Counted from the first letter of the stretch, positions 3,585 to 62,828 are shown. The stretch is DNA of 64,000 nucleotides from Acidimicrobiaceae bacterium (GCA_009844405.1 VYBO01000043.1:4927-68926), one strand, 5' to 3'. The notes: a model not told the origin generated them from the sequence alone. A program made the numbers and translations.

Positions 3585-3592
3585 CGCAGGGC

Positions 3593-13288: not shown

Positions 13289-13754
13289 ACGCCAAGACCG
13301 GGCAGGCGGTGAGCTTGTAGGTGTTGAGGCGCTTGCGCAGGGTGTAGAGCAGCAGGGCCACCGCCAGCAGGCCCACGGAGGGCTGCACCGGCGCCCACCA
13401 CGACAGCGCTCCGCCCACACCGACCAGGGCGACCACCGCTTGGTTGCACACCGGGCAGCCCACGGCCAGGAACGACACGAACCCGCCCCAGATGGTGCGG
13501 GTGCCCTGGCGCTCGGCGGCCTCGGCCAACCCGCTGGACTCGGCCGGCTCGGGACGGATGGCGAAGATCAGCCCGATCAGGGCCGAAGTGACCGCCAGGA
13601 TCACATAGTCGATCCATCGCACGGGCACCGGCCGGCCGAAGATCGGGGTGTCGATCAGGTCGGACGGCACCGCGATCAGCACCGCCGCGACGGCCCCGAA
13701 CAGCACCGCCCGCGGCCACGTGGCTCGGGGCAGAGCCAGCAGATCCTTGATCAT
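13287..13754 (-). CDS. Integral membrane protein with CPVC motif, function unknown
   Basis: 155 aa with about 4 predicted hydrophobic helices and a GCPVCN motif in a helix. No family is confidently recognised. Confidence 0.6.
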   Translation of the reverse strand: MIKDLLALPRATWPRAVLFGAVAAVLIAVPSDLIDTPIFGRPVPVRWIDYVILAVTSALIGLIFAIRPEPAESSGLAEAAERQGTRTIWGGFVSFLAVGCPVCNQAVVALVGVGGALSWWAPVQPSVGLLAVALLLYTLRKRLNTYKLTACPVLA

Positions 13755-13760
13755 CTTTAG

Positions 13761-14177
13761 TCAGGTGACCTTGTCGATGACCCGGAAGGCGTAGTCGCGC
13801 TGCTCGGCGCCGAGGGTGGCCCTCACCCGGTAGCCGCCGGGCTTGGGGAACTGGACGATGCCGGTGACCACCAGCGGCGAGCGGCTGTCGGAGCCGGGAA
13901 CCTTGCCGGGCGGGCGACCGACCTCGATGTTGGCCTTGGCCTCCATCAGCTTGTGGTGGCCGTCCTCGTCCTCGACCCGGATCATCACCTCGTGGCGCTG
14001 GTTGTGCTCCAACCACGGGACCCGCACCGACAGCGCGATGGAGAAGTGCTGCGGCCGGGGCTTCTTGCCCTCCTTGTAGGCCCGGGTGACGGTGTCCCAT
14101 CCCGCGCCCATCAGGTACAGAAGTCCGTTCTGCACCTCGGCATGGTTGGCCAGGGTCAGCAACTCGATCTGGGCCAC
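13761..14177 (-). CDS. Hypothetical protein (beta-rich, ~138 aa)
   Basis: Clean ORF with a plausible ATG, located 6 nt upstream of the membrane protein gene. No recognisable motif. Confidence 0.5.
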   Translation of the reverse strand: MAQIELLTLANHAEVQNGLLYLMGAGWDTVTRAYKEGKKPRPQHFSIALSVRVPWLEHNQRHEVMIRVEDEDGHHKLMEAKANIEVGRPPGKVPGSDSRSPLVVTGIVQFPKPGGYRVRATLGAEQRDYAFRVIDKVT

Positions 14178-14231
14178 ACGCGGCAGTCTAAGAGTGAACG
14201 CCGGCGGGCGAGAGCCGGTCGGTTCGCCGCG

Positions 14232-15779
14232 CTACTCGCTCCCGGCCGGGGCGAGGCCCAGGCGCTCGGCCAGGCCGATGCGCTGGAGCTTGCCGGTGGG
14301 GCCCTTGGGCAGCTCGTCGAGCACCAGGATCCGGCGGGGAACCTTGAACGCGGCCAGCGACTGCGACAGGAACCGGCGAAGCTCCCGCTCGTCGACGGAA
14401 CTCCCGGAGACGGCCGCGACCGCCGCGGCCACCTCCTCGCCCAGCTTGGGGTGGGGCACGGCGAAGGTGACCGCCTGGGCCACCGACGGGTGGCCCAGCA
14501 GGGCCTCGTCCACCTCCAGCGGGGAGACCTTCTCGCCGCCGCGGTTGATCTGCTCCTTGAGGCGGCCGGTGAGGAACAGGTAGCCGTCGTCGTCGACGTA
14601 GCCCTCGTCGCCGGTGCGGAACCAGCCGTCGGTGAAAGCGGCCGCGTTGGCCTCGGGGTTGTTCTCGTAGCCGTCGATCACGGTCGGGCCCTTGATCGAC
14701 ACCTCTCCCCGTTCGCCGGGTGGCAGGGGCCGGTTCCGGCCGTCGAGCACGGCCAGCTCGATGCCGGCGGGGACCCCGACCGACCGGGGCTTGGCCACCG
14801 CCGGGGGCAGAGGGTTGGCGCACATCTGGTGAGTGGCCTCGGTCATGCCGTAGGCCTCGATCACGGGCGCGCCGAACAGCTCGCCCAGCTCGTGCAGCAC
14901 CGGGGCCGGAAGAGACGCGGAGGAAGACCTCACGAAGCGCAGGCCGGCGGAGCGGGCCGTGTCGCGGTGGCGGTCGGCGCGGGAGAGCACCATCTGATGC
15001 ATGGTCGGGACCGCGGTGTAGTAGCTGGGCTCCAGGGCTTCGAGCTGAGCGAAGAACCTGAAGGCGTCGAAGCCCTCGGTGCAGGCGACCGCGCCCCCCG
15101 CCGACAGCGGCGCCAGCAGCCCGGCCAGCAGCCCGTGGATATGGAACAGCGGCATCACCTGCAGCGACCGGTCTCCGGGAGTCAGGGCGAGCGACACGGC
15201 GATGCCCGCCGCCGAGCGGGCCAGGTGCCGTTGGCGCAGCGGGACGATCTTGGGCCGCGACGTGGTGCCGGAGGTGTGCAGGACCAGGGCCACGTCGTCG
15301 GCGACAGGATCGCCCGGAGCGGGCGCGCCGCCCTCCCCGGACCCGGCGACCAGATCGAGCGCACCGGCACTGCCGTCGACCGAGCCGGCCAGCGACACCG
15401 GCAGCACGGCGGCGCCCGCCTCGCGGGCCGCGGCCCGGGCGACGGCCCCGGAGTCGTCGGGCAGGGTGACCAGGGCCTTGGCGCCGAGGTCGTCGAAATA
15501 GAAGCGCAGTTCGTCGGTGCGGTACTTCGGGTTGAGCGGCGCGGCGCATCCGGTGCAGGCCGCGGCCAGGAAGGCGAGAGCCATCTCAGGCCCGTTGGGA
15601 ACGACGATGGCGATGCGGTCGGCCGGGCCCAGGCCGAGGCCTCGGAGCCGGCCCGCGAGCCGGTCCACCTCGGACCGCAGCTCGGCGTGGGTGAGCACCG
15701 ACCCGTCGGGCGAAACGATCGCCGGCGCGCCGTCGGCCCCGGTACCGAGCAGGCCTCGCAGCGTTTCGCCTGCCGTCAC
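14232..15779 (-). CDS. AMP-dependent acyl-CoA synthetase/ligase
   Basis: AMP-binding signature LVLHTSGTTSRPK, and later GWFRTGDEGYVDDDGYLFLTGRLKEQINRGGEKVSP. The GTG at 15779 overlaps the panE stop (GTGA). The track ORF 14232..16550 is over-extended. Confidence 0.85.
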   Translation of the reverse strand: MTAGETLRGLLGTGADGAPAIVSPDGSVLTHAELRSEVDRLAGRLRGLGLGPADRIAIVVPNGPEMALAFLAAACTGCAAPLNPKYRTDELRFYFDDLGAKALVTLPDDSGAVARAAAREAGAAVLPVSLAGSVDGSAGALDLVAGSGEGGAPAPGDPVADDVALVLHTSGTTSRPKIVPLRQRHLARSAAGIAVSLALTPGDRSLQVMPLFHIHGLLAGLLAPLSAGGAVACTEGFDAFRFFAQLEALEPSYYTAVPTMHQMVLSRADRHRDTARSAGLRFVRSSSASLPAPVLHELGELFGAPVIEAYGMTEATHQMCANPLPPAVAKPRSVGVPAGIELAVLDGRNRPLPPGERGEVSIKGPTVIDGYENNPEANAAAFTDGWFRTGDEGYVDDDGYLFLTGRLKEQINRGGEKVSPLEVDEALLGHPSVAQAVTFAVPHPKLGEEVAAAVAAVSGSSVDERELRRFLSQSLAAFKVPRRILVLDELPKGPTGKLQRIGLAERLGLAPAGSE

Positions 15780-28465: not shown

Positions 28466-31400
28466 TCACACGGTGAGGGCCTGCCAGCAGACGAGGTGGA
28501 CGTCGGCGGCAGTGATCTCAGGGAGGGGCTCGGGCACCGGCTGGGGCTGCAGGCCCTGCTCGTCGATCACCCGCAGCACGGCCTCGGCCTGCGCGGCGGG
28601 CTGCTCCGCCGGCCTCAGGGCGGCTCGCACCAGGCGGGTGACGCGCTCGGTGTAGGGCGCCTGAAGGCTGTCGATGGCTCGGGCCACGTCGTGCTGGGTC
28701 ATCGACGGCGGAGGATTGGAACGCACGATCTCGGCCGCCTGTCGCAGGGCGGCAGGTATGCGGGGCTCGAGGTTGGCCTTGTCGGCGAAGTGGTTCCAGC
28801 GCGCCACGATGTCGGCGCGGGCCGCCTCCCATGCCGTGAAAGCCGTCTCCAAGGTCGCGTCGTCGAACTGGCGCGGCGTCTCGAACCCGTCGGCGGGCCG
28901 GGCGAGCCACAGGCATTCGAGCGTGTCGCTGCTGACCCGGCCCGATGCGCCCACGAACCTGAACTGCGGGTTCGGGTCGTCGCCCACCCTGGCGCAGAAC
29001 ACATGCCCGGACTCCCCGCCGGGGTGTGCCGCCATCCCCGAGCCGGTGCCCCAGGGCAGGCGCTGCAAGACGCGATGCATGTCGGGATCGTCGACGGCGC
29101 GCCGGAGCTCGGCCCTGAACTCCTCGCCGGACTGTGCGCCGAGATCGGTGCCCCCGCGCTCGAAGATCGCGGCGTCCTCGGCGCGGAGGCGCTCGATCTC
29201 GGCCCGGGTCTGGCTGAAGCTGCGATCGAGGCTGCGCTCCTGGTCGGGTATGACCTCACCGACTCCGATGGAGGCCGCAGCTTGGGCAATCTTGCGGTTC
29301 AGCCGCTCCTCGAGGCCCAGAAGCTCGTCAAGGCGCCTGTCGGGAAACACGCAGCTGATGAACACTTCGCGGTGCCTGGAGCCGATCCGGTCGATGCGAC
29401 CGTGGCGCTGCACGAGCCGCATCGGGTTCCACGGCAGGTCGTAGTTGACGATGTGGCGGGCCTGTTGGAGGTTCACGCCCTCGGCAAGCACGTCGGTGGT
29501 GACGAGAATGTCATAGAGGTCGGGATGGTCGAGCCCCGGCGCCGCGGTGCGGGGGGCGAAGCTCAGCGCCGGATCACGGGCATGCCCCGAGCCGCCGGTG
29601 TGCCAGGCGATCCTGCCTCGGTAGGCGGACAGTCGCTCGTCTCGCACCACGGCATCCTCGAGGAAACCGACGATCCATTCCACCGTGTCGGCGAAGTAGG
29701 TGAACACCAGCACTTTGCGGCGGTCGCGGGTGTCGTCGGCGCCTATGCCGTCGCGCTCGGCCTGCTGGACGACGCCGGCCAACTCATCGGCCAGCGCGGC
29801 CAGAGTGGGATCGTCGGAGCGCGTCACCGTCTGTGCCTGCCGGGCGAAGTCGCTCAGCAGTCGGTGGTCGCGGCGGGCGTGGGCCACCATCTTGCCGACG
29901 TCGAATCCGGCGGCATCCTCCAGATCCTCGTGGTGGGCGTCGAGGTACTTGTCGATCTGTTCCAGGTCGTCGGAGTCGGTGCTCGCCCAGTCGGCTATCG
30001 CGCCGCCGGTGGCGACTCGGCCGTGGAGCTCGGCGAGTTCCGCGAACGCCAGGCAACCCTCGGCCATCCGCCGGCAGGTCTTCGCGAACGCCCACGGGGA
30101 AGACTCGAAGCGCTTGAGCAGGCCCGAACGCAGCAGCCCGGCGAGCTGCAGCTCATATGCGTCCGGGTTGTCGCGGCCGAGCCGGTAGTTGGAGGGCACG
30201 TAGCGCGCCAGGGTCAGCACCGCGTCGTCGGTGTCGGGGGCTGCGTCCGGGTTGAGCGCGGCCGCAAGCCGCTCGAAGAAGCCGGGCAGCACGCCGTCCA
30301 GGTCGTAGGTGACCTTGTGGACTCTCGGGGTCGGGAACACGATCTGGTGGTCCGCGCCGTCGATGCGCACCGTGTCGTTGGCGTAGTGCTTCTTGACGAA
30401 CGAGCGCGTGCGCCGGACGGCCACCGCGTCGAGCACGTCGAACAGGTGCTGGGGTGACAGGTCGTTGGGATCCTGGCGCATGGCCTCCGCGAAGTGGTCG
30501 CGCAGCGAGCGGATCCCGTCAGCGGCGAAGGTGCCGTCGTTGCGCAGGAAGTATCCGAGCAGGTGGTAGAGGTCCCAGAGGCTGTTGTTGACCGGGGTAG
30601 CGGTCAGCAGCACCAGCTTCTTGGGCGGGAGTCCGGCCAGCAGCCTCCGCAGCGACTCGGCCCTCTGGGTGGACGGGTTGCGCAGATTGTGGGCCTCGTC
30701 CACCACGATGAGGGCGTAGTTGTGAAGGTCGGGCCCGAGCGGGCGCGACGGCTGGCGCCCGGCCTCTTCGGCATGTTCGGCCCTCTCGCGGTTGAGTCTC
30801 GGATCGTCGGCGAGCGCGTCGAACGACACCAGGGTCATCGGCAGGTTGTGCTGCTGCCTGAAGGCCTCCCAAGGGCCGTCGCGCAGCGTCGCCGGGCAGA
30901 TGACCAGCACTCGCTGGCGGCGTTCGACGGCGGCTTCCTCGATGAGCTTGCCCGCGAAGTAGGTCTTGCCCAAGCCGACCTCGTCCGCGACGAGCACGCC
31001 GTTGTAGGCGTCGAGCAGCTTTCGGGCGCGCCACAGGCCGTCCTTCTGGAACGAGGTGAGCTCGATCGTCGACCGCGGCAGGGCGGCCTCGTCGTCTTCG
31101 GCCAGTTCGCGGCCGTAGCGCTCCCACAGCATCCGCAGATAGATGAGCTGCGGAGGGTGCGGCTCGAAGCGGGGAGCGAAGATCGAGGCGAGGTCGTAAT
31201 CGGCGGCGGAGCCCCAGAGCCCGTCGAACCATTGGGCCACAGCCGTCACCGTGTGGGGGGTGTAGTTGCCGAGGTTCAGCTCGAGGTTCGTCGAGAGGCC
31301 GGCGCGGGTGAAGTTCGACGACCCCGAGACGACTCCGTGGGAGTGGGTGGCCACCAAGAACGCCTTGCCGTGAAGGAACCTGTCCTCTAGGCGGCGCACC

Positions 31401-31816
31401 TGCACTCGGCCGCTGCGCAGCCAGTCCAGCAGCCGGCGCGCCGTGCTGTCGGCCTCGACGGTGAACCCGAGCAGGTCGCGGTCGGCGGCGAGCGCCTCCT
31501 CGTGGGAGTCGAGCAGGTCGCCGACTCGGCGCAGTTCGGCGCGGTGCGAGTTGGCCGGCTCGCGCTTGAGCGCACGTCGTCGGCTCTCCGGCGGCGCGGG
31601 CTCAGCGCCGAGCAGCAGCCGCACGCCTGACAGCTTGTCGAGCGAGTCTGCGAGCAGCGAGTAGCCACCGACGTTGAAGTAGGCGGTGGCGACGTCGAGC
31701 CGAACGTCGTGGGCGAACCCGTCGGCGGCGTGGCCGATGAACCCGTTGAGTGCATCGGCCACCGTCGCGCCGTGCTGGTTGACAGCCAACTCGGGCTTGG
31801 CCTCCCCGCTACTCAT
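28466..31816 (-). CDS. PLD-family (HKD) nuclease domain fused to SNF2-family helicase
   Basis: N-terminal HGKAFLV...GSSNFTRAG is a single HKD motif. It is followed by SNF2 motifs LVADEVGLGKT, VVDEAHNLRN and LLTATPVNNSL, and a helicase-C region, LAEGVNLQQARHIVNYDLPWNPMRLVQRHGRIDRIG. Confidence 0.85.
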   Translation of the reverse strand: MSSGEAKPELAVNQHGATVADALNGFIGHAADGFAHDVRLDVATAYFNVGGYSLLADSLDKLSGVRLLLGAEPAPPESRRRALKREPANSHRAELRRVGDLLDSHEEALAADRDLLGFTVEADSTARRLLDWLRSGRVQVRRLEDRFLHGKAFLVATHSHGVVSGSSNFTRAGLSTNLELNLGNYTPHTVTAVAQWFDGLWGSAADYDLASIFAPRFEPHPPQLIYLRMLWERYGRELAEDDEAALPRSTIELTSFQKDGLWRARKLLDAYNGVLVADEVGLGKTYFAGKLIEEAAVERRQRVLVICPATLRDGPWEAFRQQHNLPMTLVSFDALADDPRLNRERAEHAEEAGRQPSRPLGPDLHNYALIVVDEAHNLRNPSTQRAESLRRLLAGLPPKKLVLLTATPVNNSLWDLYHLLGYFLRNDGTFAADGIRSLRDHFAEAMRQDPNDLSPQHLFDVLDAVAVRRTRSFVKKHYANDTVRIDGADHQIVFPTPRVHKVTYDLDGVLPGFFERLAAALNPDAAPDTDDAVLTLARYVPSNYRLGRDNPDAYELQLAGLLRSGLLKRFESSPWAFAKTCRRMAEGCLAFAELAELHGRVATGGAIADWASTDSDDLEQIDKYLDAHHEDLEDAAGFDVGKMVAHARRDHRLLSDFARQAQTVTRSDDPTLAALADELAGVVQQAERDGIGADDTRDRRKVLVFTYFADTVEWIVGFLEDAVVRDERLSAYRGRIAWHTGGSGHARDPALSFAPRTAAPGLDHPDLYDILVTTDVLAEGVNLQQARHIVNYDLPWNPMRLVQRHGRIDRIGSRHREVFISCVFPDRRLDELLGLEERLNRKIAQAAASIGVGEVIPDQERSLDRSFSQTRAEIERLRAEDAAIFERGGTDLGAQSGEEFRAELRRAVDDPDMHRVLQRLPWGTGSGMAAHPGGESGHVFCARVGDDPNPQFRFVGASGRVSSDTLECLWLARPADGFETPRQFDDATLETAFTAWEAARADIVARWNHFADKANLEPRIPAALRQAAEIVRSNPPPSMTQHDVARAIDSLQAPYTERVTRLVRAALRPAEQPAAQAEAVLRVIDEQGLQPQPVPEPLPEITAADVHLVCWQALTV

Positions 31817-32498
31817 CGGGCTCGATCACCTGCCAGCGCTGCTCTCTGAGCACACCGGCAGCTATGTCCGGGGACCGCCGCACCGCCGCTCGAAGCTGGC
31901 CGTCTCGAAATCGCTGCCGCGACTCGTTCAGAGCCTTCTCCCACCCAGGCCGCGGCTCCACGAGCCGCTCAAGGATGCAGAACTCGATCAAGTCCTCCAG
32001 ACAAGGGCGGTATCGCCGCCCACCGACGGGGAAGTGCAAGTCATCAGGCTTGTGCTTGGGGCGTCCACATCGCTCCAGCATGTCCTGCACCGCGACTGAC
32101 TCGCCATGGAGATGAAAGTGAGCCTCGGGGTACTCATTCGGAGGATCCCGGGTGTAGTCATAGGTCAAGATCGGCTCTGAATTGGTGGCGTGCATGAGCT
32201 TATAGCTGCTCTTGGTCGTGGTGAGAAACCGCTGCGATTCGTCGAGCGCGAGCGTGTGCAACAGGCGCAACGCCAACAGGGCCGGGGCCTGAGATAGGGT
32301 CAGCGCTACTGGGTCACCGCGTGGCTTCAGTCGGGAAATCTGGTTCCCAATCGCAGCGCGACCGCTTGCCTCCATCAGCACGGACAGGCAGAGACCGTGC
32401 GTGAGGGTGCGATTCAGCGCCTTAGTGAGTTCGCCAGCAAACTCCCGAGCTTGGCGATCGAGGTTAGGCTGGCGACGGCTCGGCGAAGGTCGAGACAA
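31809..32498 (-). CDS. Hypothetical protein, 229 aa, translationally coupled to the helicase
   Basis: The stop overlaps the helicase ATG by 8 nt (GATGAGTAG). No recognisable domain. The start is uncertain (TTG at 32498 or internal). Confidence 0.5.
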   Translation of the reverse strand: MSRPSPSRRQPNLDRQAREFAGELTKALNRTLTHGLCLSVLMEASGRAAIGNQISRLKPRGDPVALTLSQAPALLALRLLHTLALDESQRFLTTTKSSYKLMHATNSEPILTYDYTRDPPNEYPEAHFHLHGESVAVQDMLERCGRPKHKPDDLHFPVGGRRYRPCLEDLIEFCILERLVEPRPGWEKALNESRQRFRDGQLRAAVRRSPDIAAGVLREQRWQVIEPDE

Positions 32499-32673
32499 CG
32501 AACCAGGCCTCGCGGGCCGTCTCGTTCGTAAATCGTCCGGCTCGAGCCTGATCTTGCAGTGCCTCCCAGCTGTAGCCAGCTTCAGCCAACGCGTTGCTGA
32601 TCAGTTCCTCGATCCCCGCCTCGTCGAGGACTTCGACCTCAATGTCGGCGTAGGGATCTTCGTTGGCGCTCAT
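32464..32673 (-). CDS. Small acidic protein, 69 aa, unknown function
   Basis: ATG at 32673 is preceded by a strong GAGGAGGAG Shine-Dalgarno sequence. The protein MSANEDPYADIEVEVLDEAGIEELISNALAEAGY... is highly acidic. The track start at 32748 is less likely. Confidence 0.5.
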   Translation of the reverse strand: MSANEDPYADIEVEVLDEAGIEELISNALAEAGYSWEALQDQARAGRFTNETAREAWFVVSTFAEPSPA

Positions 32674-32935
32674 TGGCTCCTCCTCACTCAAGCCGTAGCG
32701 GCCACCCGGCCTCGGACTGACGTGCATCATCCTATGACGGTGTGACATCGACTGGAGCCAGCCTTCGTCGCACCCAAGCGAACGACACGATTATAGCCGT
32801 TCACGATCTCGGCCTCGCTCAACCTCAAAGTCGTCGTAGAGGTCATCAACGAGATCGGCGTCCTCGCAGGAGTTCATCGCCCCCTCCGCCTCGTTGGTCA
32901 TGGGGGTACGGGGTCGCACTACTTCGCGGCGCACC

Positions 32936-33778
32936 CTAACGGGAGATGGCAGCGGACCAGCGGCGAAAATGAACGAGGACCGCGGCATGGTGCTCGGCGT
33001 AGCGGTCGGGGCGCCTGGCATCGAAGGTGCTGTACAGCACGGCCAGATCGTCCTCGTCGAGGCCATAGAGATGCGCCACGCACGCATCGAGCTCGGCAAT
33101 CAGATCGTCCTTGGCCTTGCGATCGTTGACGGAGCCGACCGGCACTCCTACATTCCTGGCCCAGTCGGCGAAGCGATCGTCCACCGCAGCCAGCCGCCCC
33201 GCAATCTCGACGACGCGGTCGCGAACTGGGTGGCCCTCGCCCGGGTCGGGCACCGGCAGCGCATTGAGGACATGGAAGTTCAGGCTCATCTCGACGGTCC
33301 GCCGGGCACACCAGTCCATAATCATCCAAGCCAACAGCCCAAGCACGAACGCCTCGTCGCGACAACCACCACGGGTTTGGAGGAGGTATGGACCCTTGTT
33401 GGTGATGACGACCCGAGGCGGGATGAGCGCCGCGACGATGGTACGGGTGTTGGTCGGGTTAGTCACGTCTCGGAAGGCGATGCGCGGATTGCGACACGGC
33501 AGGGTCGCTGGGTCAAGGAGAACCGGCTGGCGTAGTTCAGCGAAGGCTGACCGGACAGTCCGGCTTTGCGACTGGCGCTTCTGCTGAAGGTTAGCCGTGA
33601 TGCTCACAGCATCAGCGCTGTCATAGAAGTCGCCGGTGTCGGGCTGCCAGAGGTTGAAGCTCTTGCCCGCGTAGACGGGCCAGACATCGCCAGTCCTCGG
33701 CTCGGACGGTTTGCTGTCATCGCTGCTGGGCCTCCCTGAGTTGCCGGTAGATCGCGAGGACCTCGTCCCGGCGGTCAT
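32936..33778 (-). CDS. Methyltransferase C-terminal cassette, paralog 2 (possibly non-functional: no start adjacent to conserved WPVY)
   Basis: ...VWPVYAGKSFNLWQPDTG...RIAFRDVTNPTNTRTIVAALIPP...LDACVAHLYGLDEDD is about 60-65% identical to the ORF at 33717..34478. The nearest in-frame ATGs are at 33778 and 33862, both overlapping the paralog-1 3' end. Confidence 0.5.
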   Translation of the reverse strand: MTAGTRSSRSTGNSGRPSSDDSKPSEPRTGDVWPVYAGKSFNLWQPDTGDFYDSADAVSITANLQQKRQSQSRTVRSAFAELRQPVLLDPATLPCRNPRIAFRDVTNPTNTRTIVAALIPPRVVITNKGPYLLQTRGGCRDEAFVLGLLAWMIMDWCARRTVEMSLNFHVLNALPVPDPGEGHPVRDRVVEIAGRLAAVDDRFADWARNVGVPVGSVNDRKAKDDLIAELDACVAHLYGLDEDDLAVLYSTFDARRPDRYAEHHAAVLVHFRRWSAAISR

Positions 33779-34478
33779 CCCACTGCCCCGGACGCCCGAA
33801 GGTGTCGTACACGACGGCGATGTCGTCCTCGTCGAGGCCGTAGAGGTATGCCACGCACGCATCGAGCTCGCACAGGGCCTCTACCCCCCCCCCGGTCGAT
33901 GTCGGGCCAGCTACTGCGCCCACGGGCACACCGACCTCGGCGGCCCAGCCCTCCAATCGCTCGTCGCGCGCGGCGAGGCCTCCCGCCAGTTCGATGATCC
34001 GGTCACGCACCGAATGGCCCTCTCCCGGATCAGGTATTGCCAGAAGATTCAGTTGATGAAAGTTGAGGTGGAGCTCGAGCGTCCGACGCGCTTGCCAATC
34101 GCAAGGCATCGAGCACAGCACTCCCAGCACGTATGCCTCATCCCTAGCGGATCCCGCTAGTCGAAGCAGGTAGGGGGCCTGGTTCGCCACGACGCGATCC
34201 GGCGGGATGAGAGCGGCCACGATCGTGCGGGTGTTGGTCGGGTTGGTCACGTCGCGGAACGCGATCCGGGCTTGGCGGCAGGGTAGCGTTGCTGAGTCAC
34301 GCAGTACCGTCTCGGGCAACTCCGCGAACGCCGACGATTTCGTACCGCTTTGCGATTGGCGCCTGTGCTGAAGGTGCTCTGTGATGGTCGCGGCGTCGAC
34401 GCTGTCGTAGTAGACGCCCGTGTCGGGCTCCCACAGGTTGAACGACGTGCCCTTGTACACCGGCCAAACCCGGCTCAT
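33717..34478 (-). CDS. Methyltransferase C-terminal cassette, paralog 1 (split off or translationally coupled)
   Basis: MSRVWPVYKGTSFNLWEPDTG...RIAFRDVTNPTNTRTIVAALIPP...LDACVAYLYGLDEDD. The ATG at 34478 sits in an ATGA overlap with the third-frame stop of the upstream methyltransferase reading. It contains a G10 tract. Confidence 0.6.
   Translation of the reverse strand: MSRVWPVYKGTSFNLWEPDTGVYYDSVDAATITEHLQHRRQSQSGTKSSAFAELPETVLRDSATLPCRQARIAFRDVTNPTNTRTIVAALIPPDRVVANQAPYLLRLAGSARDEAYVLGVLCSMPCDWQARRTLELHLNFHQLNLLAIPDPGEGHSVRDRIIELAGGLAARDERLEGWAAEVGVPVGAVAGPTSTGGGVEALCELDACVAYLYGLDEDDIAVVYDTFGRPGQWDDRRDEVLAIYRQLREAQQR
33884..33893 (-). repeat. Homopolymer C10 (G10 in gene sense) inside cassette paralog 1
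   Basis: cta + 10 c + ggtcgat, read directly. It encodes the GGG of ...PTSTGGGVEAL. Confidence 0.98.
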
Positions 34479-34503
34479 CGCTCAGTCTCCGCGCTGGAAG
34501 CCG

Positions 34504-34715
34504 CCGCGCCGTCGTCGTTCATGAACCTGTCCCGGTCGCCGGTGGCGTCGAGTTCGCGGACCGGGCGGAAGCGCCATCGTCGTTCACGAAGAGGCTCCGG
34601 TCGTGGGTCGCGTGGAGCTCTGCGACTGCTCGGAAGCGCCACGTCCGTCGTCCCGGAAGAACCGGTGGCGGTCGGTCGTTGCGTTGAGATCGCCTTGGAC
34701 CGGCCGGAATCTCCA
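34504..34715 (-). repeat. Three diverged tandem units (74, 65, 73 nt) each encoding the WRFR..EL.AT.DR..F..DDG motif in a different reading frame
   Basis: Units lie at 34715-34642, 34641-34577 and 34576-34504 in gene sense. Manual three-frame translation is given in the findings. Confidence 0.85.
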
Positions 34716-34724
34716 TCTCCGACG

Positions 34725-34735
34725 CCCCCCCCCCC
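34725..34735 (-). repeat. Homopolymer C11 (G11 in gene sense) inside the methyltransferase
   Basis: gacg + 11 c + gcagg, read directly from the sequence. Confidence 0.98.
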
Positions 34736-35206
34736 GCAGGCGCGTCGCGCTCATCGAGGTCGCTGCCGTCGAATCTTGGATGCTGCTTCATCTTGCGCCA
34801 GACTCGGAACGCGGCCCGGTTCGGCACCTGCGGGAAGGCGGCCGACTTCGACCAACTTCGGAACTCGGACACCGGCACCAGCTCCGGGCCAGCCTCAAGC
34901 ACTTCCCGATAGTGGACCTGCGAGGATGCTGGACCGGGATAGATGGCTACAAGCGGCTCCGAGGCTTCCGCTTCAAGGCCACCCCCTGGGATTGGTTCGG
35001 GCGTTGGCAGTGCAGATCGCGATGAGGGCAGTTGTGTACCGTCCGTCCAAGCCGTCGAAGGCCCATTGCCCTGTGTTGAGGCAGGTAGCGGCCGAGATGA
35101 CCGCGCGTGAGTGAGCAGCGCCACTGTGTAAGCGTTGTGGACTTCCTCGAAGACCCACCCCTTCTGATTGATGAGCGTGAGCACCGACACCTTGGGCTTT
35201 GCTTGC

Positions 35207-35230
35207 AGAGAGAGAGAGAGAGAGAGAGAG
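35207..35230 (-). repeat. (AG)12 on plus strand = (CT)12 in gene sense, inside the methyltransferase
   Basis: Read directly: gcttgc(ag)x12 atttattcgg. It is translated as SLSLSLSL in the track ORF. Confidence 0.98.
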
Positions 35231-38200
35231 ATTTATTCGGTGCCGCGACATCCGTGACCCGCAGCCGCCATTCTGACATGCCTTCGGAATTCAAGGCCGT
35301 TCGGGGGACAACCAGCCCAAGATGACCTCCGACCCGGATGAGTTCAAGGTTCGCCCACATGAAGGCTTGGTACAGATCTGTCCGGCCCGAGCCGAGACCA
35401 GGAAACGCGACTCTGAGAACAGCCCTCGTCTTCTCGGCCACCTCCGAATCATGTAGAAAAGCTTCCTCAAGGTCAGGCCTCTCCAGGCGCGTCCTAGTGA
35501 TGACTCGTCGCATGGCACCGACCGACAAGCCCCGCATACCCGGCTGGTGCATACCCCACCAGACATGTTCTTGGACGACCGCCTGCTCCCATGGTGGGTT
35601 GCCTATCAGGCAGTCGAAGCCGCTGAGGTCGCCTCGTCTGAACACCTCGGGGAAGCGGGCCGGGAAATGGACGGGGTTCAAGTCCGCTACCGCTCGCCGC
35701 ACGGCATCCGTGGCCGCCAGCGCCTCGAAGACGGCCGGGTCGTAGTGCTCGGGGAGGTCGCAGGCGCCGGCGCGCTGGGCCGCGACCACGTCGAAGATCG
35801 CCCGAGCGGGCGCGACTGCAGCGAAGGCCTCGCGGTGAGCCTCGCGGGCTTGGTCGATCTCGGCCTTGGTGGCGTCGGAGGTGCGGGCCAGCCGGCTCAG
35901 CGCCTCGCCGGCCTCGTCGAGCATCGCGACCAGCTGGTTGCGGAACAGGCTCGGCGCCGACGGGTCGGCGTCGGGCTCGAAGACACGCAGCACGTCGTCG
36001 AGCGTGCCAACGCCGGTGAGGCTGTTGCCCTCGATCAGGTTGTGGTCGAGGAAGCTCAGCGGCAGGCCAGGCACGAACGTGTGGACCCAGATCGACAGTC
36101 GGGCAAGCTCCACTGCGACCCGGTTGAGGTCCACGCCGTAGATGCAGTATCGGGCCACTTGGCGGCGCAGAAGCGAACTGGTCTCGATCTCGTCCTCGCC
36201 GCCGAGAGCCCCCGGGACCGCGACGGCGGCAGTCCTCAGGCGCCGCAGGGTTGCATGCACCCCGGCACCGGCAGAGGGGTTGCGGCTCAGCCAACCCGAC
36301 AGCCTCCGCTCGATACGGTCCACTGCCGCCACCAGGAAGTGCCCCGAACCCATCGCGATGTCGGCGCAGCGGAAGTCGAAGAAGGCCGTATCGACCCCGG
36401 CGACGTCGCCCGCGGTCGCCAGTGCGTCGAGACGGGCGAGATGCTCCTCAAGTGCGGGCTCCAGCGCATGGTCGAGCAGATGCTCCACGGCGAAGGGCTT
36501 CGTGAAGTAGCTGCCGGTGCTCTTGCGCACGCCCGAGCGGTTGTGGAAATAGACGCTCCCTGCGGCCACCTCCACCTCATCGTCGGCCTCCGCGGGAACG
36601 TAGGTGGGCTCACCCTTGAGGAGCTTGACGGTGAGATCCTGCTCGGCCAGCGACAGCTGCGACTCCAGCAGGCCCTCGTAGATCGTGCCGAACGCGCGGA
36701 CCGACAACGACCGGAAGTCCACCGGACCCTCGCCCTCGGGGCTGAGGTCGATCAGCATGGCCGACAGCGCGGGGCCGAGCTCGGCGTCGGTCAGCGGCGC
36801 CATCGCCTCGATGGCCGCGCCCGAGCCGCTCACATCCGGGTCGCGGGAGAACAGCCCGCCGTCGTATGCGGGCAGCGCCCAAGCAATATTGCCGGTGTCT
36901 ATGGCGCTCCAGAGTTGCTTGATGTCGGCCCACATCGAGGTGGCCGCCGCGTCGAAGACCACCGATCCGCGGCGGCGGTCCTCGGCGAGGCGTCTCGCCA
37001 GCCGCGTCAGCGAGTGGTCGGCGTAGCGGGCGTTCGTGCTGTAGGGGAAGCGGTCCATGGCCTCGGCGTAGGCGACGAACAGCAGCCGGAACAGGATCAC
37101 CATCACCTGCTCGTAGGCAGCCCTCAGGTCCTCCGGACCCGGCGCATCGGTGACACGCCTGGCCACCGCGTCGGCCAGTGCGGGCACGGTCTCGGCGTAC
37201 ACCCGCTCTCGCAGCCGGACCGCCAGGTCGGCGGCGAACCGGTCCGACGCCTCGAGCGCCTCCTCGATCTTGCCGCCGGCGTCGAGCGCCTCCGCGGAGA
37301 ACAGCAGCCTCAGGTATCCGGCGTGCTGCTCGCTCAGCAGCGCCAGGTTGGCCTCCACGTAGGTCTCGGCCCGGCCCTTGCGGCCCACGCCGGTGTCGGG
37401 GCGGGCCGCATACAGCCGGATCTCGCTGCCGCGGGTCAACAGCACCCAGTCAGCGCCGTGCGCATCCGCATGCGAGAGAGCCAGGGACACGGGGGTGATC
37501 CCGTCGAAGCGGGCAGCCGGAGCGTCGAAGGGCTCGTCTTCGGAGCAGAACACGGCCGCGGCGCGGCTGTGGCCGTTCACCTTCAGCAGATGGACGTGGT
37601 TGGCATGCTGCTCCAGCCGGAAGCCGAGCCCCTCCGCCAGTCGCCTGCCCCGCAGGCCCAGCAGGGACCGGCCCGACCGCACCGACGCGGCCCAGTCGGA
37701 CCGCTGCGGCAGACCCGAACGGAGTTCCTGGGTGGCGAGCAGGCCCACGTTGCGCAGGCCGGCCTCGAGCCTGGCGTGCTCCGGCGCATCGAGTCCGACC
37801 AGCGCCTTCTGGAGGACGCGCACGGCCGCGTGCAGATCGGGCTCGCCCAAGGCGCAGTCGGCGACCCGCTCGACCGGAGCGGCATCGAGGTCCCACACCA
37901 CTGCCGGGCTGTCCCCGACGGGGCCACACACGGCCACCTGAACCGAGTCCGACGAGGTCGTCGCATCCGCAGGCGCCGGATAGCCCACGATCATCAGAAC
38001 CGGGCTGGCTCGTCCGGCGCGGCGCTTTAGGTAGCCGTCGCGCATCTGGGACGCCTGGGGCCTGCGGGAAGCGGACGCCAGAACCACCTCAAGGCCGTTG
38101 GGCACGACCCGGCCGCGGCAACGCTGAAAGAACGCTCCGCACGGCGCCAACGCTTCAGGGAAGCCTTGCGGCCGGGACCAGCGGTCGGGGTCTCGCTCTG

Positions 38201-38420
38201 GCAGGAAGCGGTCAGCCCAGCTCACGCCCTCGCCCGGAGGTTCGTTTGCACTCCCGGCCCGGCGGGAGCGCATGGGAACGCCGTCCCGCCGTGCCGCTCA
38301 TGGCGACGCACGCTACTGAATCGCGAGCGGCCTTGCCAGGGTGGGTCAGTGGGGCGTCGGGGACGCCCAGCCGACGCCAGCGCGGCTGACCCCACGGCTC
38401 GAGTGCTAGCATTGTGCGAC

Positions 38421-38642
38421 ATGGCTGTCCTCTACCTCCGCAACGTCTCCGACGATCTGATGCGCCGGCTGAAGCTGCTCGCGTCCCGAGAGCAGACGTC
38501 GGTCTCGGCCGCCGCGCTCAGAGAACTCGATGAGGCGACCCGCTGGGTCGACGTCCCCGATCTCTTCGAGAACCTCCCGGACGTGCAGGTTCCCACCGCG
38601 GAGATCCTCGCCGCGCTCGACGAGGGGCGCTCGACGAGGTGA
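38421..38642 (+). CDS. vapB: VapB/FitA-like ribbon-helix-helix antitoxin
   Basis: MAVLYLRNVSDDLMRRLKLLASREQTSVSAAALRELDEA is typical of Arc/FitA-type antitoxins. The stop overlaps the start of the PIN gene. ATG at 38421 lies inside track ORF 38166..38642. Confidence 0.75.
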   Translation: MAVLYLRNVSDDLMRRLKLLASREQTSVSAAALRELDEATRWVDVPDLFENLPDVQVPTAEILAALDEGRSTR

Positions 38643-39040
38643 TCGTGGTCGATGCCTCGGCCGTGGTCGAAGCCCTGATCCACGGCGGCGAAGCGCGGCA
38701 GCGGCTGACGACTGAGCGAGTTGCGGCGCCCCACCTCGTCGACGCCGAGGTCATGCACGCTCTTCGCAGGCTGACTGCACGGGGCGCCTTGGACGACCTG
38801 TCCGCCCACCGCGCGGTGCGACGGTGGCGCGGCGCGCCCGTCCGACGGTTCGCGATGCACGCCCTGGTCGATCGAGTCTGGGCCATGCGGCACAACCTCT
38901 CCGCCTACGACGCCTGCTATGTCGCGCTTGCCGAGGCGCTGGACCGCCCCCTGCTGACCGCCGACCACCGGCTCGCGGCGGCGCCCACGCTGAAGTGTCC
39001 CGTCGTGCTGCTGGCAGGCAGAGAAAGTCACGATCAATAG
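38639..39040 (+). CDS. vapC: PIN-domain toxin VapC
   Basis: MIVVDASAVVEAL... provides the first acidic residue, with later DAEV and YDACYVALAEAL...LLTADHRL providing the other PIN acidic residues. Confidence 0.85.
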   Translation: MIVVDASAVVEALIHGGEARQRLTTERVAAPHLVDAEVMHALRRLTARGALDDLSAHRAVRRWRGAPVRRFAMHALVDRVWAMRHNLSAYDACYVALAEALDRPLLTADHRLAAAPTLKCPVVLLAGRESHDQ

Positions 39041-39151: not shown

Positions 39152-39595
39152 ATGAACGAGAACACCGGCGATGCCGGCGCCCCGGGCGGCACCGGTGCGC
39201 CCGAGAGCCCGTCGAACGGCGCGGAGGCCGCCTTCGTGGATGCTCGCGTCATGCACGCAATGGCTCTCGAACGCCTCGACGCGGCAGACATCCGAGACGC
39301 CGCGGAAAAGGCCTGGTGCGCCGCCAAGCGGGCTACCGACGGCCTGATCATCGCCCGCACGGGCCAAGAACCGAAGAAGTCTCCCGACACCACCCGGTTG
39401 CTGCGGCAGTTGTCCTTCGAGGACCCTCACGTGCGGCCGCTCAGCCACCTCTACTCCACGGCCAGGGACCATCTCCACGGCGACTGCTTCTACTCGGGGC
39501 TCTGCGAGCCTGTGGAGGAGACCCTCCGACTGATCCGCGAGACCGGCGACTACATCGCTGAGGCCGAGCGCCTGGCCACCCGCCGCGCCGGCTGA
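39152..39595 (+). CDS. PaREP1/HEPN-like helical protein
   Basis: AAEKAWCAAKRATDGLIIARTG......LL..L..........LYSTARDHLHGDCFYSG resembles the PaREP1 pattern (EK.W.A...A......G....H..L......L....W..A..LH.NFY). ATG at 39134 is an alternative start. Confidence 0.45.
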   Translation: MNENTGDAGAPGGTGAPESPSNGAEAAFVDARVMHAMALERLDAADIRDAAEKAWCAAKRATDGLIIARTGQEPKKSPDTTRLLRQLSFEDPHVRPLSHLYSTARDHLHGDCFYSGLCEPVEETLRLIRETGDYIAEAERLATRRAG

Positions 39596-55094: not shown

Positions 55095-55614
55095 CTGAGT
55101 CCTCACTGCTCTGCCGGCTGTCGCGGATCTCACGCACCTCGTTCACGTCCCGGACATCGGGACCGCCCGGGTGGAACCCACCGGCACCGCCCGAGCTGTA
55201 GCCGAAGCCGAACCCGCCTCGACCGCCGGGGCCAGCAGACCATCCCCCGACGGTGACCTTCTTCGAGAAGTGACGCATCAGCAGCGACCTGACCAGCACA
55301 CGGGTGGGAAAGAACAGCAACAGCAGCCCGACCGCGTCGGTGATGAAACCGGGCGTGAGCATCAACGCGCCCGCCACGAGGATCAGCAACCCGTCCACCA
55401 ACTCGGCGGCAGGCAGCTCGCCACGGCTCAGGCGGGCCCGGATCTGGTTGAGCACACCCAGCCCGGAGCGGCGCACCATCCACGCGCCCACCACCGAGAC
55501 CCCGACCAGCAGCACGATGGTCTGGCCGGTCCCCATCCCGCCGGCCACACCGATGATCACATACAGCTCCAGCAGCGGCACGCAGAGCAGCGCCAGGAGC
55601 AGCAGGCCGAACAC
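55084..55614 (-). CDS. fxsA: FxsA-family cytoplasmic membrane protein
   Basis: LLELYVIIGVAG..G..QTI.L......G........G...L..........P..E..DG.LILVAGALMLTPGFITD is the FxsA hallmark. GTG at 55614. Confidence 0.8.
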   Translation of the reverse strand: MFGLLLLALLCVPLLELYVIIGVAGGMGTGQTIVLLVGVSVVGAWMVRRSGLGVLNQIRARLSRGELPAAELVDGLLILVAGALMLTPGFITDAVGLLLLFFPTRVLVRSLLMRHFSKKVTVGGWSAGPGGRGGFGFGYSSGGAGGFHPGGPDVRDVNEVREIRDSRQSSEDSDGD

Positions 55615-55646
55615 GCCCCCAGCGTATGGGCGCAATCCCCCGCTGG

Positions 55647-55735
55647 ATTCTCGGGTCGGTTGTAGGCGCTGTACGCGAAGAACCAACCCGAGAATCCGCC
55701 GACACAATCTCGGGTCGGTTGTACGCGCTGTACGC
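55647..55735 (+). promoter_or_regulatory. L1-R-L2 alternative-pairing element in the fxsA/selA divergent region
   Basis: L1 attctcgggtcggtt (55647-55661) and R aaccaacccgagaat (55681-55695) are complementary at 14 of 15 positions. A 28-nt copy of L1 plus its loop recurs at 55708-55735 with 1 mismatch. Confidence 0.5.
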
Positions 55736-55760
55736 CCCCACTCGCGGCGTGCCTAGCCTT

Positions 55761-57050
55761 GTGGCCGACGTGCCGACCCAGGATCGACCGCCCTCCGTCG
55801 ACCGGCTAGCCCGCTCACTGGCCGGGACCGGACTGCCCCATGCGCTTCTGGTCGACGCGGCCCGGGCCGCGGTGGCGGCCGGGGACCCCGGCTCGGCCGG
55901 AGCCCGGGCCGAGCGCATCCGCCGGCGGCTGCTGTCGCCGGTGATCAACGGGACCGGCGTGCTGCTGCACACCAACCTCGGCCGGGCGCCGCTGGCCTGG
56001 AGCCAGAGCGCCGGCTACTCGAACCTGGAGCTGGATCTCGAGACCGGCGAACGCGGCGACCGGCAGGCCGGCGCGCCCGCGCTGCTGGCCCGGGCCTGCG
56101 GGGCCGAGGCCGCGATGGCGGTGAACAACTGCGCCTCGGCGGTGATGCTGGTGCTGGCCGCGCTGGCCGAGGGCCGCGACGCGGTGGTCTCCCGGGGCGA
56201 GCTGGTGGAGATCGGCGGCGGGTTCAGGGTTCCCGACGTGATGGCATGGTCGGGTGCCCGGCTGGTGGAGGTCGGGACCACCAACCGCACCCGCCGGGCC
56301 GACTTCGCGGCCGCCGTCGCCGACGGTGCCAACGATGTGGCCGTGGTGGTGCAGGTGCACCAGTCGAACTTCCGGGTGGTGGGCTACACCGAGGCGCCCC
56401 GTACCGCGGAGCTGGCCGGCCTGGGGCCGCCGCTGGTGGCCGACATCGGCTCGGGGCTGCTCGACAGCCGCTGCCCGTGGCTGGACCGCGGGCCGCCGCC
56501 GTGGCTGGACCGGGAGCCGGCCGCCCGCCAGACGCTCGAGGCCGGCGCCGCGCTGGTGACGTTCTCCGGCGACAAGCTACTGGGCGGGCCTCAGGCCGGC
56601 ATCATCGCCGGGCGGGCCGATCTGGTCGAAGCCTGCCGCCGCCACCGGCTGGCTCGGGCCCTGCGGCCCGGGTCACTGGTGCTGGCCGCGCTGCAGCAAA
56701 CCGCGCTGGCCTACCTGCGCCAGGACGGCCAGGCCATCGACTTCTGGCGCATGGCCGCGCCAACACCGGCCCAGCTTCGAGAGCGTCTCGGCGCCTACGA
56801 GGGCCTGCAGGAGGTGAGCACCGCGGCCACGCCCGGAGGGGGCACTCTGCCCGGTGTCGAGATCGAGTCGGTGGGCGTGGCCGTGCCCGGCGACCATGTG
56901 AGCCGGCTGAGGTCGCGGCCCCGTCCGATCATCGCCCGGGTCGCCGACGGCGCCACCGTGGTCGACCTCCGCACCGTCCACCCCGACGACGACGCCGAGG
57001 TGGCCGCGGCCCTGCGCGAGGCTGCCGACGTCACCGAACCACCCGCCTGA
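55761..57050 (+). CDS. selA: L-seryl-tRNA(Sec) selenium transferase
   Basis: VINGTGVLLHTNLGRAPL, GGGFRVPDV, and FSGDKLLGGPQAGII with the PLP lysine. The start is a GTG at 55761 or 55770. Confidence 0.85.
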   Translation: MADVPTQDRPPSVDRLARSLAGTGLPHALLVDAARAAVAAGDPGSAGARAERIRRRLLSPVINGTGVLLHTNLGRAPLAWSQSAGYSNLELDLETGERGDRQAGAPALLARACGAEAAMAVNNCASAVMLVLAALAEGRDAVVSRGELVEIGGGFRVPDVMAWSGARLVEVGTTNRTRRADFAAAVADGANDVAVVVQVHQSNFRVVGYTEAPRTAELAGLGPPLVADIGSGLLDSRCPWLDRGPPPWLDREPAARQTLEAGAALVTFSGDKLLGGPQAGIIAGRADLVEACRRHRLARALRPGSLVLAALQQTALAYLRQDGQAIDFWRMAAPTPAQLRERLGAYEGLQEVSTAATPGGGTLPGVEIESVGVAVPGDHVSRLRSRPRPIIARVADGATVVDLRTVHPDDDAEVAAALREAADVTEPPA

Positions 57051-57052
57051 CC

Positions 57053-57100
57053 GAATTGGCAGCAGAATGCCCCCTATACGGCGCATAATGCTGCCAATTC
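57053..57100 (+). promoter_or_regulatory. Perfect 12-bp stem hairpin (24-nt structured loop) in the selA-selB spacer, locally AT-richer
   Basis: gaattggcagca (57053-57064) and tgctgccaattc (57089-57100) are exact complements. An inner atgc/gcat pair can extend the stem. Confidence 0.5.
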
Positions 57101-57131
57101 CGATTCCCGCCGCCGAGACGGCCGACCGTCC

Positions 57132-61626: not shown

Positions 61627-61700
61627 CGGGCAGTGGCGCAGCTTGGTAGCGCGCCTCGTTCGGGACGAGGAGGTCGTGGGTTCAAATCCCGCCTGCCCGA
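61627..61700 (+). tRNA. tRNA-Pro (anticodon CGG)
   Basis: Manual cloverleaf: acceptor CGGGCAG/CTGCCCG, D-arm GCGC-AGCTTGGTA-GCGC, anticodon stem CCTCG/CGAGG with loop TTCGGGA, variable AGGTC, T-arm GTGGG-TTCAAAT-CCCGC (G-U closing pair), discriminator A. CCA is not encoded. Confidence 0.9.
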
Positions 61701-61736
61701 CTCTTGTGATGTGTCGCGGGACGCGACGCGAGGCGG

Positions 61737-62786: not shown

Positions 62787-62828
62787 ACCGCAGAATGCAC
62801 CTCGCCTGGGCGAACTACCTACGGGACG

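Follow-up and report, generated by a model that had tools for sequence, protein, structure and literature searches.

How can a methylase gene whose coding sequence is cut into several frames by three simple sequence repeats (SSRs) belong to a functional operon? The question is raised by a locus in a 64,000-nucleotide (nt) stretch of DNA, called here the window, which has ~70% G+C and derives from a sponge-type Acidimicrobiaceae metagenome-assembled genome (MAG; GCA_009844405.1 VYBO01000043.1:4927-68926). An earlier note on this DNA described a co-oriented operon from 38273 down to 28466 that starts with a methyltransferase and ends with a fusion of a phospholipase D (PLD) nuclease domain to a SNF2 helicase. 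It regarded the methyltransferase as one frame-corrected open reading frame (ORF) whose repeats are defects to be locked. ORF listing and three-frame translation re-derive the gene order, all on the minus strand, and bear out the operon. The split of the methylase at its repeats is, in contrast, organised and conserved, and its apparent frameshifts seem to form a conserved design. We find it fairly likely that the locus codes a two-gene restriction-modification (RM)-like module whose methylase, in a clade of Acidimicrobiia, switches stochastically among several states through three hypermutable repeats.

The methylase begins with a part of 1014 codons (35232..38273), starting at the ATG at 38273 or, as is likely, at the GTG at 38225. 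This part comprises an N-domain, a helical region and a gamma-class N6-adenine methylase core that matches Pfam Eco57I and has intact catalytic motifs (DIAMGSGHFL at amino acid (aa) 638 and NPPW at aa 892). Its best model is the PADLOC Type IIG family profile PDLC03620 (REase_MTase_IIG, 1378 positions; E=2e-156, profile positions 101-984). The part that follows the first repeat matches positions 1059-1093, while cassettes 1 and 2 (C1 and C2) each match positions 1132-1373 (9e-47 and 3e-48, respectively), so that similarity summed across the methylase pieces covers the full length of the profile. The cassettes thus correspond to the last ~245 residues of proteins of this methylase family. The earlier note had recognised them as two paralogous C-terminal cassettes, and they are indeed 62% identical, though they are pieces of the methylase. 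Its assignment of the enzyme as PglX-like gives way to the far better Type IIG model: PglX models yield only ~1e-4, with 20.2 bits for BREX_2_MTaseX (cut-off 400) and 15.2 bits for BREX_1_MTaseX (cut-off 500). DrmMI models match the methylase core only (3e-59), and a phmmer search of the methylase against the PDB gave no match.

The first repeat, SSR1, is a (CT)12 tract (35207..35230) read as SLSLSL, which sets the frame towards module M1, module M2 or a dead end. M1 (KVSVLTLINQKGWVFEEVHNAYTVALLTHARSS; 35095..35193) shares its frame with the downstream domain and holds the end of the Eco57I-type catalytic domain; since the Eco57I profile extends into the first M1 residues, M closes that domain. 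M2 (AVISAATCLNTGQWAFDGLDGRYTTALIAICTANARTNPRGWP, then a stop; 34973..35104) starts 92 nt after M1 in the -1 frame. Single-ORF homologues hold the M segment once (…LLNSGRWVF-DMEPRYTVGLIAL…), while the window has two copies after the repeat. With a (CT)11 tract M1 is read, and M2, crossed out of frame, then serves as a linker; (CT)13 leads across the M1 region out of frame and then into M2. The present state of the window, (CT)12, is the dead end and yields a truncated product. The equivalent site in relatives is occupied by (TC)23, (TC)9, G13 or C11.

The M2 path ends at a stop codon with a particular context. The +1 programmed frameshift of prfB, the gene of release factor 2 (RF2), has a geometry of a Shine-Dalgarno-like GGGGG, a 3-nt spacer, CUU and then the stop. 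The end of M2 carries a prfB-like motif, AGGGGG TGG CCT TGA (34973..34987), within the predicted frameshift-site stretch AGGGGGTGGCCTTGA. In five lineages this end has the prfB-type layout of GGGGG, 3-nt spacer, CUU or CCU codon, stop and open +1 frame. M2 terminates as GGGGGTGGC[CT]TT[GA]A in 5/5 lineages, invariant also at synonymous and T-ending positions despite the ~70% G+C of the genome, and the +1 frame after the stop is open into a conserved HVAIYPGPASS domain. The middle domain (…EPLVAIYPGPASS…FRVWRKMKQHPRFDG…), placed by the profile match and the alignment of homologues, spans 34736..34972.

The second repeat, SSR2, is a G11 tract (34725..34735) whose length modulo 3 selects U1 (G10), U2 (G11, the present state) or U3 (G12). 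U is a ~23-aa segment, WRFRPV-x-ELxATxDR-xx-F-xx-DDG, found in three copies, one per frame, each then followed by a stop; every SSR2 state yields one intact U. U1 with its tail and stop (WRFRPVQGDLNATTDRHRFFRDDG…) occupies 34584..34715. U2 with its tail and stop (WRFRAVAELHATHDRSLFVNDDG…; 34519..34641) starts 74 nt after U1 and features a 65-nt direct repeat, and U3 (WRFRPVRELDATGDRDRFMNDDG…ETER, then a stop; 34475..34576) starts 65 nt after U2. The types QGDLNAT (U1), AELHAT (U2) and RELDAT (U3) are orthologous across lineages, and each is also the only in-frame U of some single-U homologue in other phyla, where it is in frame with the cassette. The site of SSR2 in relatives holds (AG)26, (AGGAC)5(ACAGG)4, C23, (TC)23, (CGGT)23(CGGA)12 or (CGGT)4(CGGA)5.

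The U modules lie directly upstream of cassette 1, a separate ORF of 253 aa (33717..34478) with its own GGAG and ATG. The TGA of U3 overlaps this ATG as ATGA, with GGAG upstream; in the closest relative, L005, the overlap is GTGA with AGGAGG. Loci L006, L167 and L168 have only one cassette, joined in frame to U3. The U1 frame (34584-34478), in which C1 also lies, displays a first stop, two codons and an ATG, then a second stop, one codon and the C1 ATG. A chain of termination and re-initiation could thereby also link translation of cassette 1 to the U1 state. The resulting 'stop-TTMA' pattern of the U1 frame is conserved, but this may simply reflect the NDDG codons of U2.

The third repeat, SSR3, is a G10 tract inside C1 (33884..33893) that toggles between C1 and its paralogue C2, a 280-aa ORF (32936..33778). 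G10 gives the full 253-aa C1. G11 gives a truncated C1 whose TGA overlaps the C2 ATG (gggATGA), an overlap conserved in three lineages. With G9 or G12 a TAG follows the tract immediately; a C1-C2 fusion product, considered for these two lengths, is ruled out by that TAG. The best 120 cassette homologues are all free-standing ORFs and include the full-length form and both truncated forms (…GAVG or …GGGxRYAS). The cassettes are distinct types: between lineages, C1-C1 identity is 79%, C2-C2 identity 77-79% and C1-C2 identity 62-66%. Two cassette proteins 65-74% identical to C1 (P0188 and P0226) are labelled 'Gammaproteobacteria bacterium' (MAG F4089), which hints either at transfer between sponge symbionts or at mis-binning.

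Is this arrangement maintained? The two M copies and the three U copies are each offset by 2 mod 3 and have each their own frame, and C1 and C2 also differ in frame. The offsets (92 nt for M1/M2; 74 and 65 nt, or 68 and 65 nt, for U) are all 2 mod 3 and kept across lineages. Layout and offsets are retained among methylases that are 56-78% identical, while the repeat types at two of the sites differ. Substitutions were counted pairwise among five lineages at codon positions 1/2/3 in the frame of each module, giving 45/34/102 for M1, 58/45/107 for M2, 47/15/94 for U1, 49/15/71 for U2 and 45/25/68 for U3. The pooled non-redundant variable columns distribute as 48/27/78 (p=2.5e-6), and no lineage has an in-frame stop inside a module. 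These patterns suggest that purifying selection acts on each module in the frame it occupies. The 'middle ORFs' found in other assemblies terminate in U1 (6), U2 (~9) or U3 (~10), and their repeat-encoded peptides show many repeat types.

The repeats also vary between nearly identical sequences. Five assemblies, the window's and four others, show no difference across 10,235 nt other than at SSR1, with 12 or 13 units, and SSR3, G10 or G11: L004 carries (CT)13, the M2 state, and L002 carries G11 at SSR3, the C2-coupled state. Intragenic tract lengths that differ between otherwise identical sequences are the mark of SSR phase-variable RM genes. Noise is less likely for the (CT)12/13 difference than for the homopolymer one. 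There is about an even chance that the locus goes further and works as a contingency locus by 'reading-frame multiplexing', in which the tandem copies (two of M, three of U and two of C) provide up to 12 randomly adopted forms of the enzyme, probably differing in DNA specificity, with no recombinase. The repeats, the prfB-like site and the ATGA couplings would direct ribosomes through one copy of each segment.

The same features might be seen as a way to protect the gene from its own repeats. The additional M and U copies would then only guarantee that some functional copy is read at any repeat length, all states being equivalent, and the repeats would serve some other end, for example ON/OFF switching or a linker of variable length. 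This agrees with the presence of one intact U in each SSR2 state and with the three U states being about equally common in nature, and any functional difference among the modules would be hypothetical. The type-specific residues QGDLN, AELH and RELD are however kept across lineages and match the natural single-U variants of other phyla, C1 and C2 are conserved as distinct types, and both SSR1 and SSR3 retain dead-end frames. We hold protection of the frame an unlikely sole role of the copies and retain the multi-state switch.

The partner of the methylase is the 1116-aa product of the last gene (28466..31816), which was correctly described as a fusion of a single-HKD PLD to SNF2. Pfam finds PLDc_2 at aa 120-201 and SNF2-rel_dom and Helicase_C at aa 253-812. 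In the protein an HKD region (aa ~120-201) precedes a Swi2/Snf2 ATPase (aa ~250-880), and the C-terminal region is conserved too; the motifs HGK...GSSN, GLGKT, DEAH and QRHGRIDR are intact. It is identical to MYE97700, its closest relatives belong to lineages associated with sponges, among them Candidatus Poriferisocius and Poriferisodalis, and the nearest solved structures are RapA and other Swi2/Snf2 ATPases. It resembles the DrmD, HmaA and 'HKD+Snf2' models (E=1e-25 to about 1e-46), though well below all curated cut-offs.

The earlier note proposed a check for conserved neighbourhoods. To this end genomes were scanned with aligned PLD-SNF2 homologues, and every window protein then served as a tblastn query. 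Among the 22 full-length PLD-SNF2 relatives (38-81% identity) with sufficient flank, 21 have the large methylase, complete with its N-domain, immediately upstream. They span Acidimicrobiia, Longimicrobiales, Luteimicrobium, Microbacteriaceae, Bifidobacteriaceae, Phycisphaera, deltaproteobacteria and one Nitrosopumilaceae archaeon. In most, the methylase is a single ORF of ~1350-1400 aa whose stop abuts or overlaps the SNF2 start. The sole exception, L166 (7697-12345), has a 73% identical PLD-SNF2 with no large methylase adjoining. A more distant locus, L022 from Algoriphagus, features a PLD-SNF2 ~26% identical to that of the window followed directly by a 1195-aa Eco57I+TaqI_C+MmeI_Mtase protein, the gene order being reversed. 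A scan of metagenome contigs yielded almost no close relatives with upstream flank. Because only methylase and PLD-SNF2 co-occur across relatives, the conserved unit is these two genes and not the six of the earlier note; the cassettes are methylase pieces and the two small proteins encoded between them and SNF2 are an insert. Judged by its sequences, the methylase with HKD-SNF2 is a widespread, unnamed two-gene kind.

Two loci of the survey show further peculiarities. Upstream of PLD-SNF2, L166 has a gene for a 301-aa C5 DNA_methylase, and a C1-like cassette protein (P0126) is probably coded by the same contig. The PLD-SNF2 paralogues P0029 and P0036, 62-63% identical to the window protein, appear on one genome (L168), which suggests two copies of the system per cell.

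The linkage of the two genes bears on the possibility that the locus is a phasevarion, in which the methylase is mainly an epigenetic regulator of symbiont gene expression and PLD-SNF2 is secondary. SSR-switched methylases commonly have this role, as for the Type IIG enzyme Cj0031 (PMC4889913; PMC9881135 names it among phase-variable Type II RM enzymes), and the OFF state predominates among the five assemblies. The near-obligate linkage to an intact nuclease-motor gene in 21/22 loci argues instead for restriction, and the integrase found near L165 together with the toxin-antitoxin cargo of the slot (see below) also speaks against this view, which we judge decidedly improbable.

How would a restriction-like module of this composition operate? 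The N-domain was described in the earlier note as an uncharacterised extra domain of ~330 aa. It is an extra domain, but one conserved in all homologues and with a weak resemblance to MmeI-type nucleases: Pfam on ten N-domains gave a single MmeI_N match (E=0.039, archaeal homologue). The position of the ExK lysine is not conserved in an alignment of 9 homologues, and the domain is probably a dead or degenerate MmeI-type nuclease. This would explain the need for a separate nuclease, for which PLD-SNF2 is the probable candidate since the lysine is not conserved. Single-HKD PLD nucleases require dimerisation for cleavage. The methylase would bind a specific DNA site and mark self DNA with N6-methyladenine (m6A). 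At unmethylated sites it would recruit or license the ATP-driven SNF2 motor, and two single-HKD PLD domains would have to pair to cut.

The repeats would act on this scheme at three levels. SSR1 would pick M1 or M2 as the last segment of the catalytic domain, or a dead end, the M2 path rejoining the main frame by the +1 frameshift. SSR2 would pick U1, U2 or U3 just before the recognition cassette, and SSR3 the separately translated C1, or C2 by stop/start coupling, or neither. The three repeats together could produce up to 12 enzyme variants and OFF states. The favoured consequence would be a changed target specificity, or else a changed sensitivity to phage inhibitors. Altered specificity is favoured because the variable parts lie between the catalytic domain and the C-terminal recognition region, and because L022 has TaqI_C in its recognition region and related loci invert the same region (PMC9881135).

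A number of points weigh against this interpretation. The +1 frameshift at the M2 end is proposed from the resemblance to prfB. The U1 and U2 states of L006, L167 and L168 would have no cassette unless one is separately made, a poor fit to three equal alternatives. The AlphaFold2 (AF2) model of cassette 1 alone is poor (predicted local distance difference test, pLDDT, 64.7; disordered N-terminus) and finds no Foldseek neighbour in the PDB, so that the cassette is evidently no autonomous domain; TaqI_C was not detected in 53 cassette homologues (Pfam, E<=1). Four of the five assemblies are OFF at SSR1, and some of them possibly derive from the same samples, in which case the homopolymer differences are perhaps assembly noise. 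Codon-position tests of single modules are marginal (p=0.013-0.25). A part of M and U in DNA recognition is something we infer, and the defence function, the switching of specificity and the expression of the frames are likewise read from sequence.

The slot between the cassettes and SNF2 codes the two small proteins of the operon. The first (69 aa; 32464..32673) is acidic (pI 4.05) and is preceded by the strong Shine-Dalgarno sequence GGAGGAG, as had been noted. The second (229 aa; 31809..32498) is basic (pI 8.98), and its stop overlaps the PLD-SNF2 ATG by 8 nt. The two genes overlap each other by 35 nt. The short gaps and overlaps attributed to the whole operon hold at the 8-nt overlap but not after cassette 2, where 262 nt separate it from the 69-aa gene. 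Neither protein belongs to a Pfam, NCBIfam or PADLOC family. The 229-aa protein, described earlier as of unknown fold, has a confident AF2 model (pLDDT 93.6) that finds no Foldseek neighbour in PDB or BFVD, and its sequence matches none in the PDB. Its family consists of stand-alone ~220-aa proteins forming 827 representative clusters at E<=1e-3.

The 69/229-aa pair is found in the inter-gene slot only in the window and in L005. In L165 the slot holds RelB/YafQ (8460-8987), while L005 has both pairs (RelB/YafQ at 7704-8264). L005 has in addition a short remnant of the C-terminus of a third cassette at ~8200-8367. L010 (Luteimicrobium; 13427-14337) codes a 63-aa ORF and then a 229-aa homologue with a GTGA overlap, just downstream of SNF2, and L167 has a remnant of a 229-aa homologue upstream of the module (3339-3821, minus strand). 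The family is thus seen near the module in three separate lineages: between its genes (window and L005), downstream (L010) and upstream (L167). The 229-aa protein may be a functional accessory and not chance cargo. The pair has the shape of type II toxin-antitoxin systems, a small acidic gene overlapping a larger basic one and portable together with it. Pfam, NCBIfam, PADLOC, PDB and Foldseek place it in no described toxin or antitoxin family. We read it as a portable toxin-antitoxin-like accessory outside the core, the 69-aa protein being the putative small partner of the 229-aa protein.

These proteins would be integral if the locus were a six-gene hybrid of the bacteriophage exclusion (BREX) system and the defence island system associated with restriction-modification (DISARM). 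The genes are indeed co-oriented and packed, the 229-aa stop overlaps the SNF2 start, the closest relative L005 keeps the pair, and 229-aa homologues occur near the module in L010 and L167. The methylase nevertheless abuts SNF2 directly in most relatives, the slot is filled by RelB/YafQ in L165 and by both pairs in L005, the 229-aa family is made of 827 clusters of stand-alone proteins, and the PglX, DrmD and DrmMI models are far below their cut-offs. A six-gene hybrid is in our view very improbable, and a two-gene core with a switched methylase is retained.

The G+C content is 0.64-0.65 at 32000-36000 of the window, against ~0.70 in the flanks, over a segment that takes in both cassettes, the 69/229-aa genes and the 3' portion of the methylase gene. 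A phage-type integrase gene lies just upstream of the module copy in L165. Both observations fit horizontal mobility. The idea that the methylase is a decaying pseudogene, inactivated by frameshifts and duplications so that only the helicase-nuclease or nothing works, could draw on the lower G+C at 32-36 kb, on the window copy being out of frame at SSR1 and on gene callers splitting the region into several ORFs, but it is scarcely credible for a multi-frame layout whose offsets and stop/start overlaps persist over 56-78% methylase identity and whose modules have no internal stops and show third-position-biased substitution in their own frames.

The flanks of the operon are otherwise ordinary. 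A FitA-like ribbon-helix-helix (RHH) antitoxin (38421-38642) and a PIN toxin (38639-39040) are coded on the plus strand, divergent from the operon; this is one antitoxin/PIN pair where two VapBC pairs had been announced. The HEPN-like gene reported next to them is a 147-aa ORF (39152-39592, plus strand) that is present, while its assignment comes from a PaREP1 match below threshold. The 17 other large window ORFs belong only to housekeeping families in Pfam, and a defence island is not what these surroundings suggest. Rfam and tRNA scans gave no match near the operon. Unrelated genes of the window include selA and selB of the selenocysteine machinery (55557-58850), tRNA-Pro(CGG) (61627-61701) and a gene for a DUF4143 protein (61737-63185).

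How does this module compare with known systems? A pairing of this kind is briefly mentioned in a table of Milman et al. 2023 (NAR 51:553, PMC9881135, Table 3), as an unnamed case of a coding sequence (CDS) for a Cj0031-homologous Type II RM protein adjoining a PLD+SNF CDS. The shared traits are a large gamma-class (Eco57I-type) methylase that ends in a recognition region, a PLD/SNF protein and variation in the 3' part of the methylase gene, and L022 has this composition. Those loci vary by DNA inversion between cassettes, whereas the window varies by repeat slippage across frames with no invertase; the PLD-SNF2 of the window is also only ~26% identical to that of L022, a Milman-type locus in which the gene order is reversed. 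The literature searched returned no experimental study of, or name for, Milman-type PLD/SNF pairings. The view of the earlier note that the system fits no named family therefore stands, in that no named system has this composition, while the pairing itself had already been listed. A search for a named PLD-SNF2 system in the literature returned only a type III CRISPR accessory family; the model 'C3a139 HKD+Snf2', considered as a named defence system, is that accessory family and was discarded.

Type IIG/IIL enzymes of the MmeI family have the same order of N-domain, gamma-class N6-adenine methylase and C-terminal recognition region. Type IIG enzymes carry an active PD-(D/E)xK nuclease in the same polypeptide; in the window the ExK lysine position of the N-domain is not conserved and the separate PLD-SNF2 is the probable nuclease. 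Cj0031 of C. jejuni is a Type IIG enzyme switched by a poly-G tract (PMC4889913); its switching is ON/OFF only, in contrast to the multi-state methylase proposed here.

The BR Type-2 or Hma systems, defined by a DUF499 AAA+ ATPase and DUF3780 (Rakesh & Krishnan 2026, PMC12839542), share an N6 methylase and a helicase with an N-terminal HKD fused to Swi2/Snf2 (PADLOC HmaA match 1e-25). Pfam detects neither DUF499 nor DUF3780 in the operon proteins or the large window ORFs, and no DUF499, DUF3780, DrmA or DrmB is found among the genes called within 9-10 kb in L001-L004, L165, L167 and L168. The proposal that all PLD-SNF2 relatives of 25-29% identity are BR Type-2 loci was rejected, as L022 is a plain two-gene pair. 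Class 1 DISARM shares a SNF2 protein (DrmD-like, 6e-46), a PLD nuclease and an adenine methylase (DrmMI-like core, 3e-59), but DrmA and DrmB/DUF1998 are absent from the window, where PLD and SNF2 are fused, and the DrmD equivalog NF038317 gives 186 bits against a cut-off of 610. Membership in BREX types 1-6 finds no support, PglZ and the BrxC/PglY ATPase not being in the locus. The earlier note had likewise reported no PglZ, BrxC, BrxL or DUF1998 (DrmA/DrmB) in the window, and Pfam agrees for PglZ, BrxC, BrxL, DrmA/B and DUF499 over the operon proteins and the 17 other large ORFs. With core genes absent and curated cut-offs not reached, its description of a mixture of BREX-like and DISARM-like parts does not hold.

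Type ISP enzymes (LlaGI) and Type III enzymes couple a methylase and recognition unit to an ATP-driven double-stranded DNA motor and a nuclease, and the predicted logic of the window is alike. A Type ISP enzyme is a single polypeptide with an Mrr nuclease, while the window has separate genes and an HKD nuclease. Type III systems combine a beta-class Mod with a Res that has PD-(D/E)xK, in contrast to the Eco57I-type methylase and the HKD nuclease of the window.

SSR-driven change of specificity is known in Type I hsdS genes such as NgoAV. Frameshift suppression at the SSRs of mod genes is described in a preprint by Bhatti & Saikrishnan 2026. In the hsdS and mod cases, as proposed here, slippage gives more than a binary outcome and ribosomal frameshifting can rescue the frame; they differ in producing full-length versus truncated proteins, or leaky expression, with no parallel copies of a segment in each frame. 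The literature on phase variation and frameshifting returned cases of ON/OFF switching or truncation and none of parallel modules in separate frames, and as far as we can tell the multi-frame architecture is undescribed. If confirmed, it would extend SSR phase variation beyond ON/OFF or truncation, to a gene that stores alternative 'exons' in its frames and chooses them by slippage. It would be a compact alternative to invertase shufflons, an unusual way to vary one enzyme randomly, and a naturally occurring example in which SSR switching works together with programmed ribosomal frameshifting and translational coupling. Annotation breaks such genes into strings of hypothetical fragments, and public data contain over 120 clusters of free-standing cassettes along with dozens of 'middle ORFs'. 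The pair of methylase and HKD-SNF2 would itself be a simpler relative of class 1 DISARM and of the DUF499-centred BR/Hma systems, and could serve as a minimal model for the coupling of a SNF2 motor-nuclease to a methylation mark.

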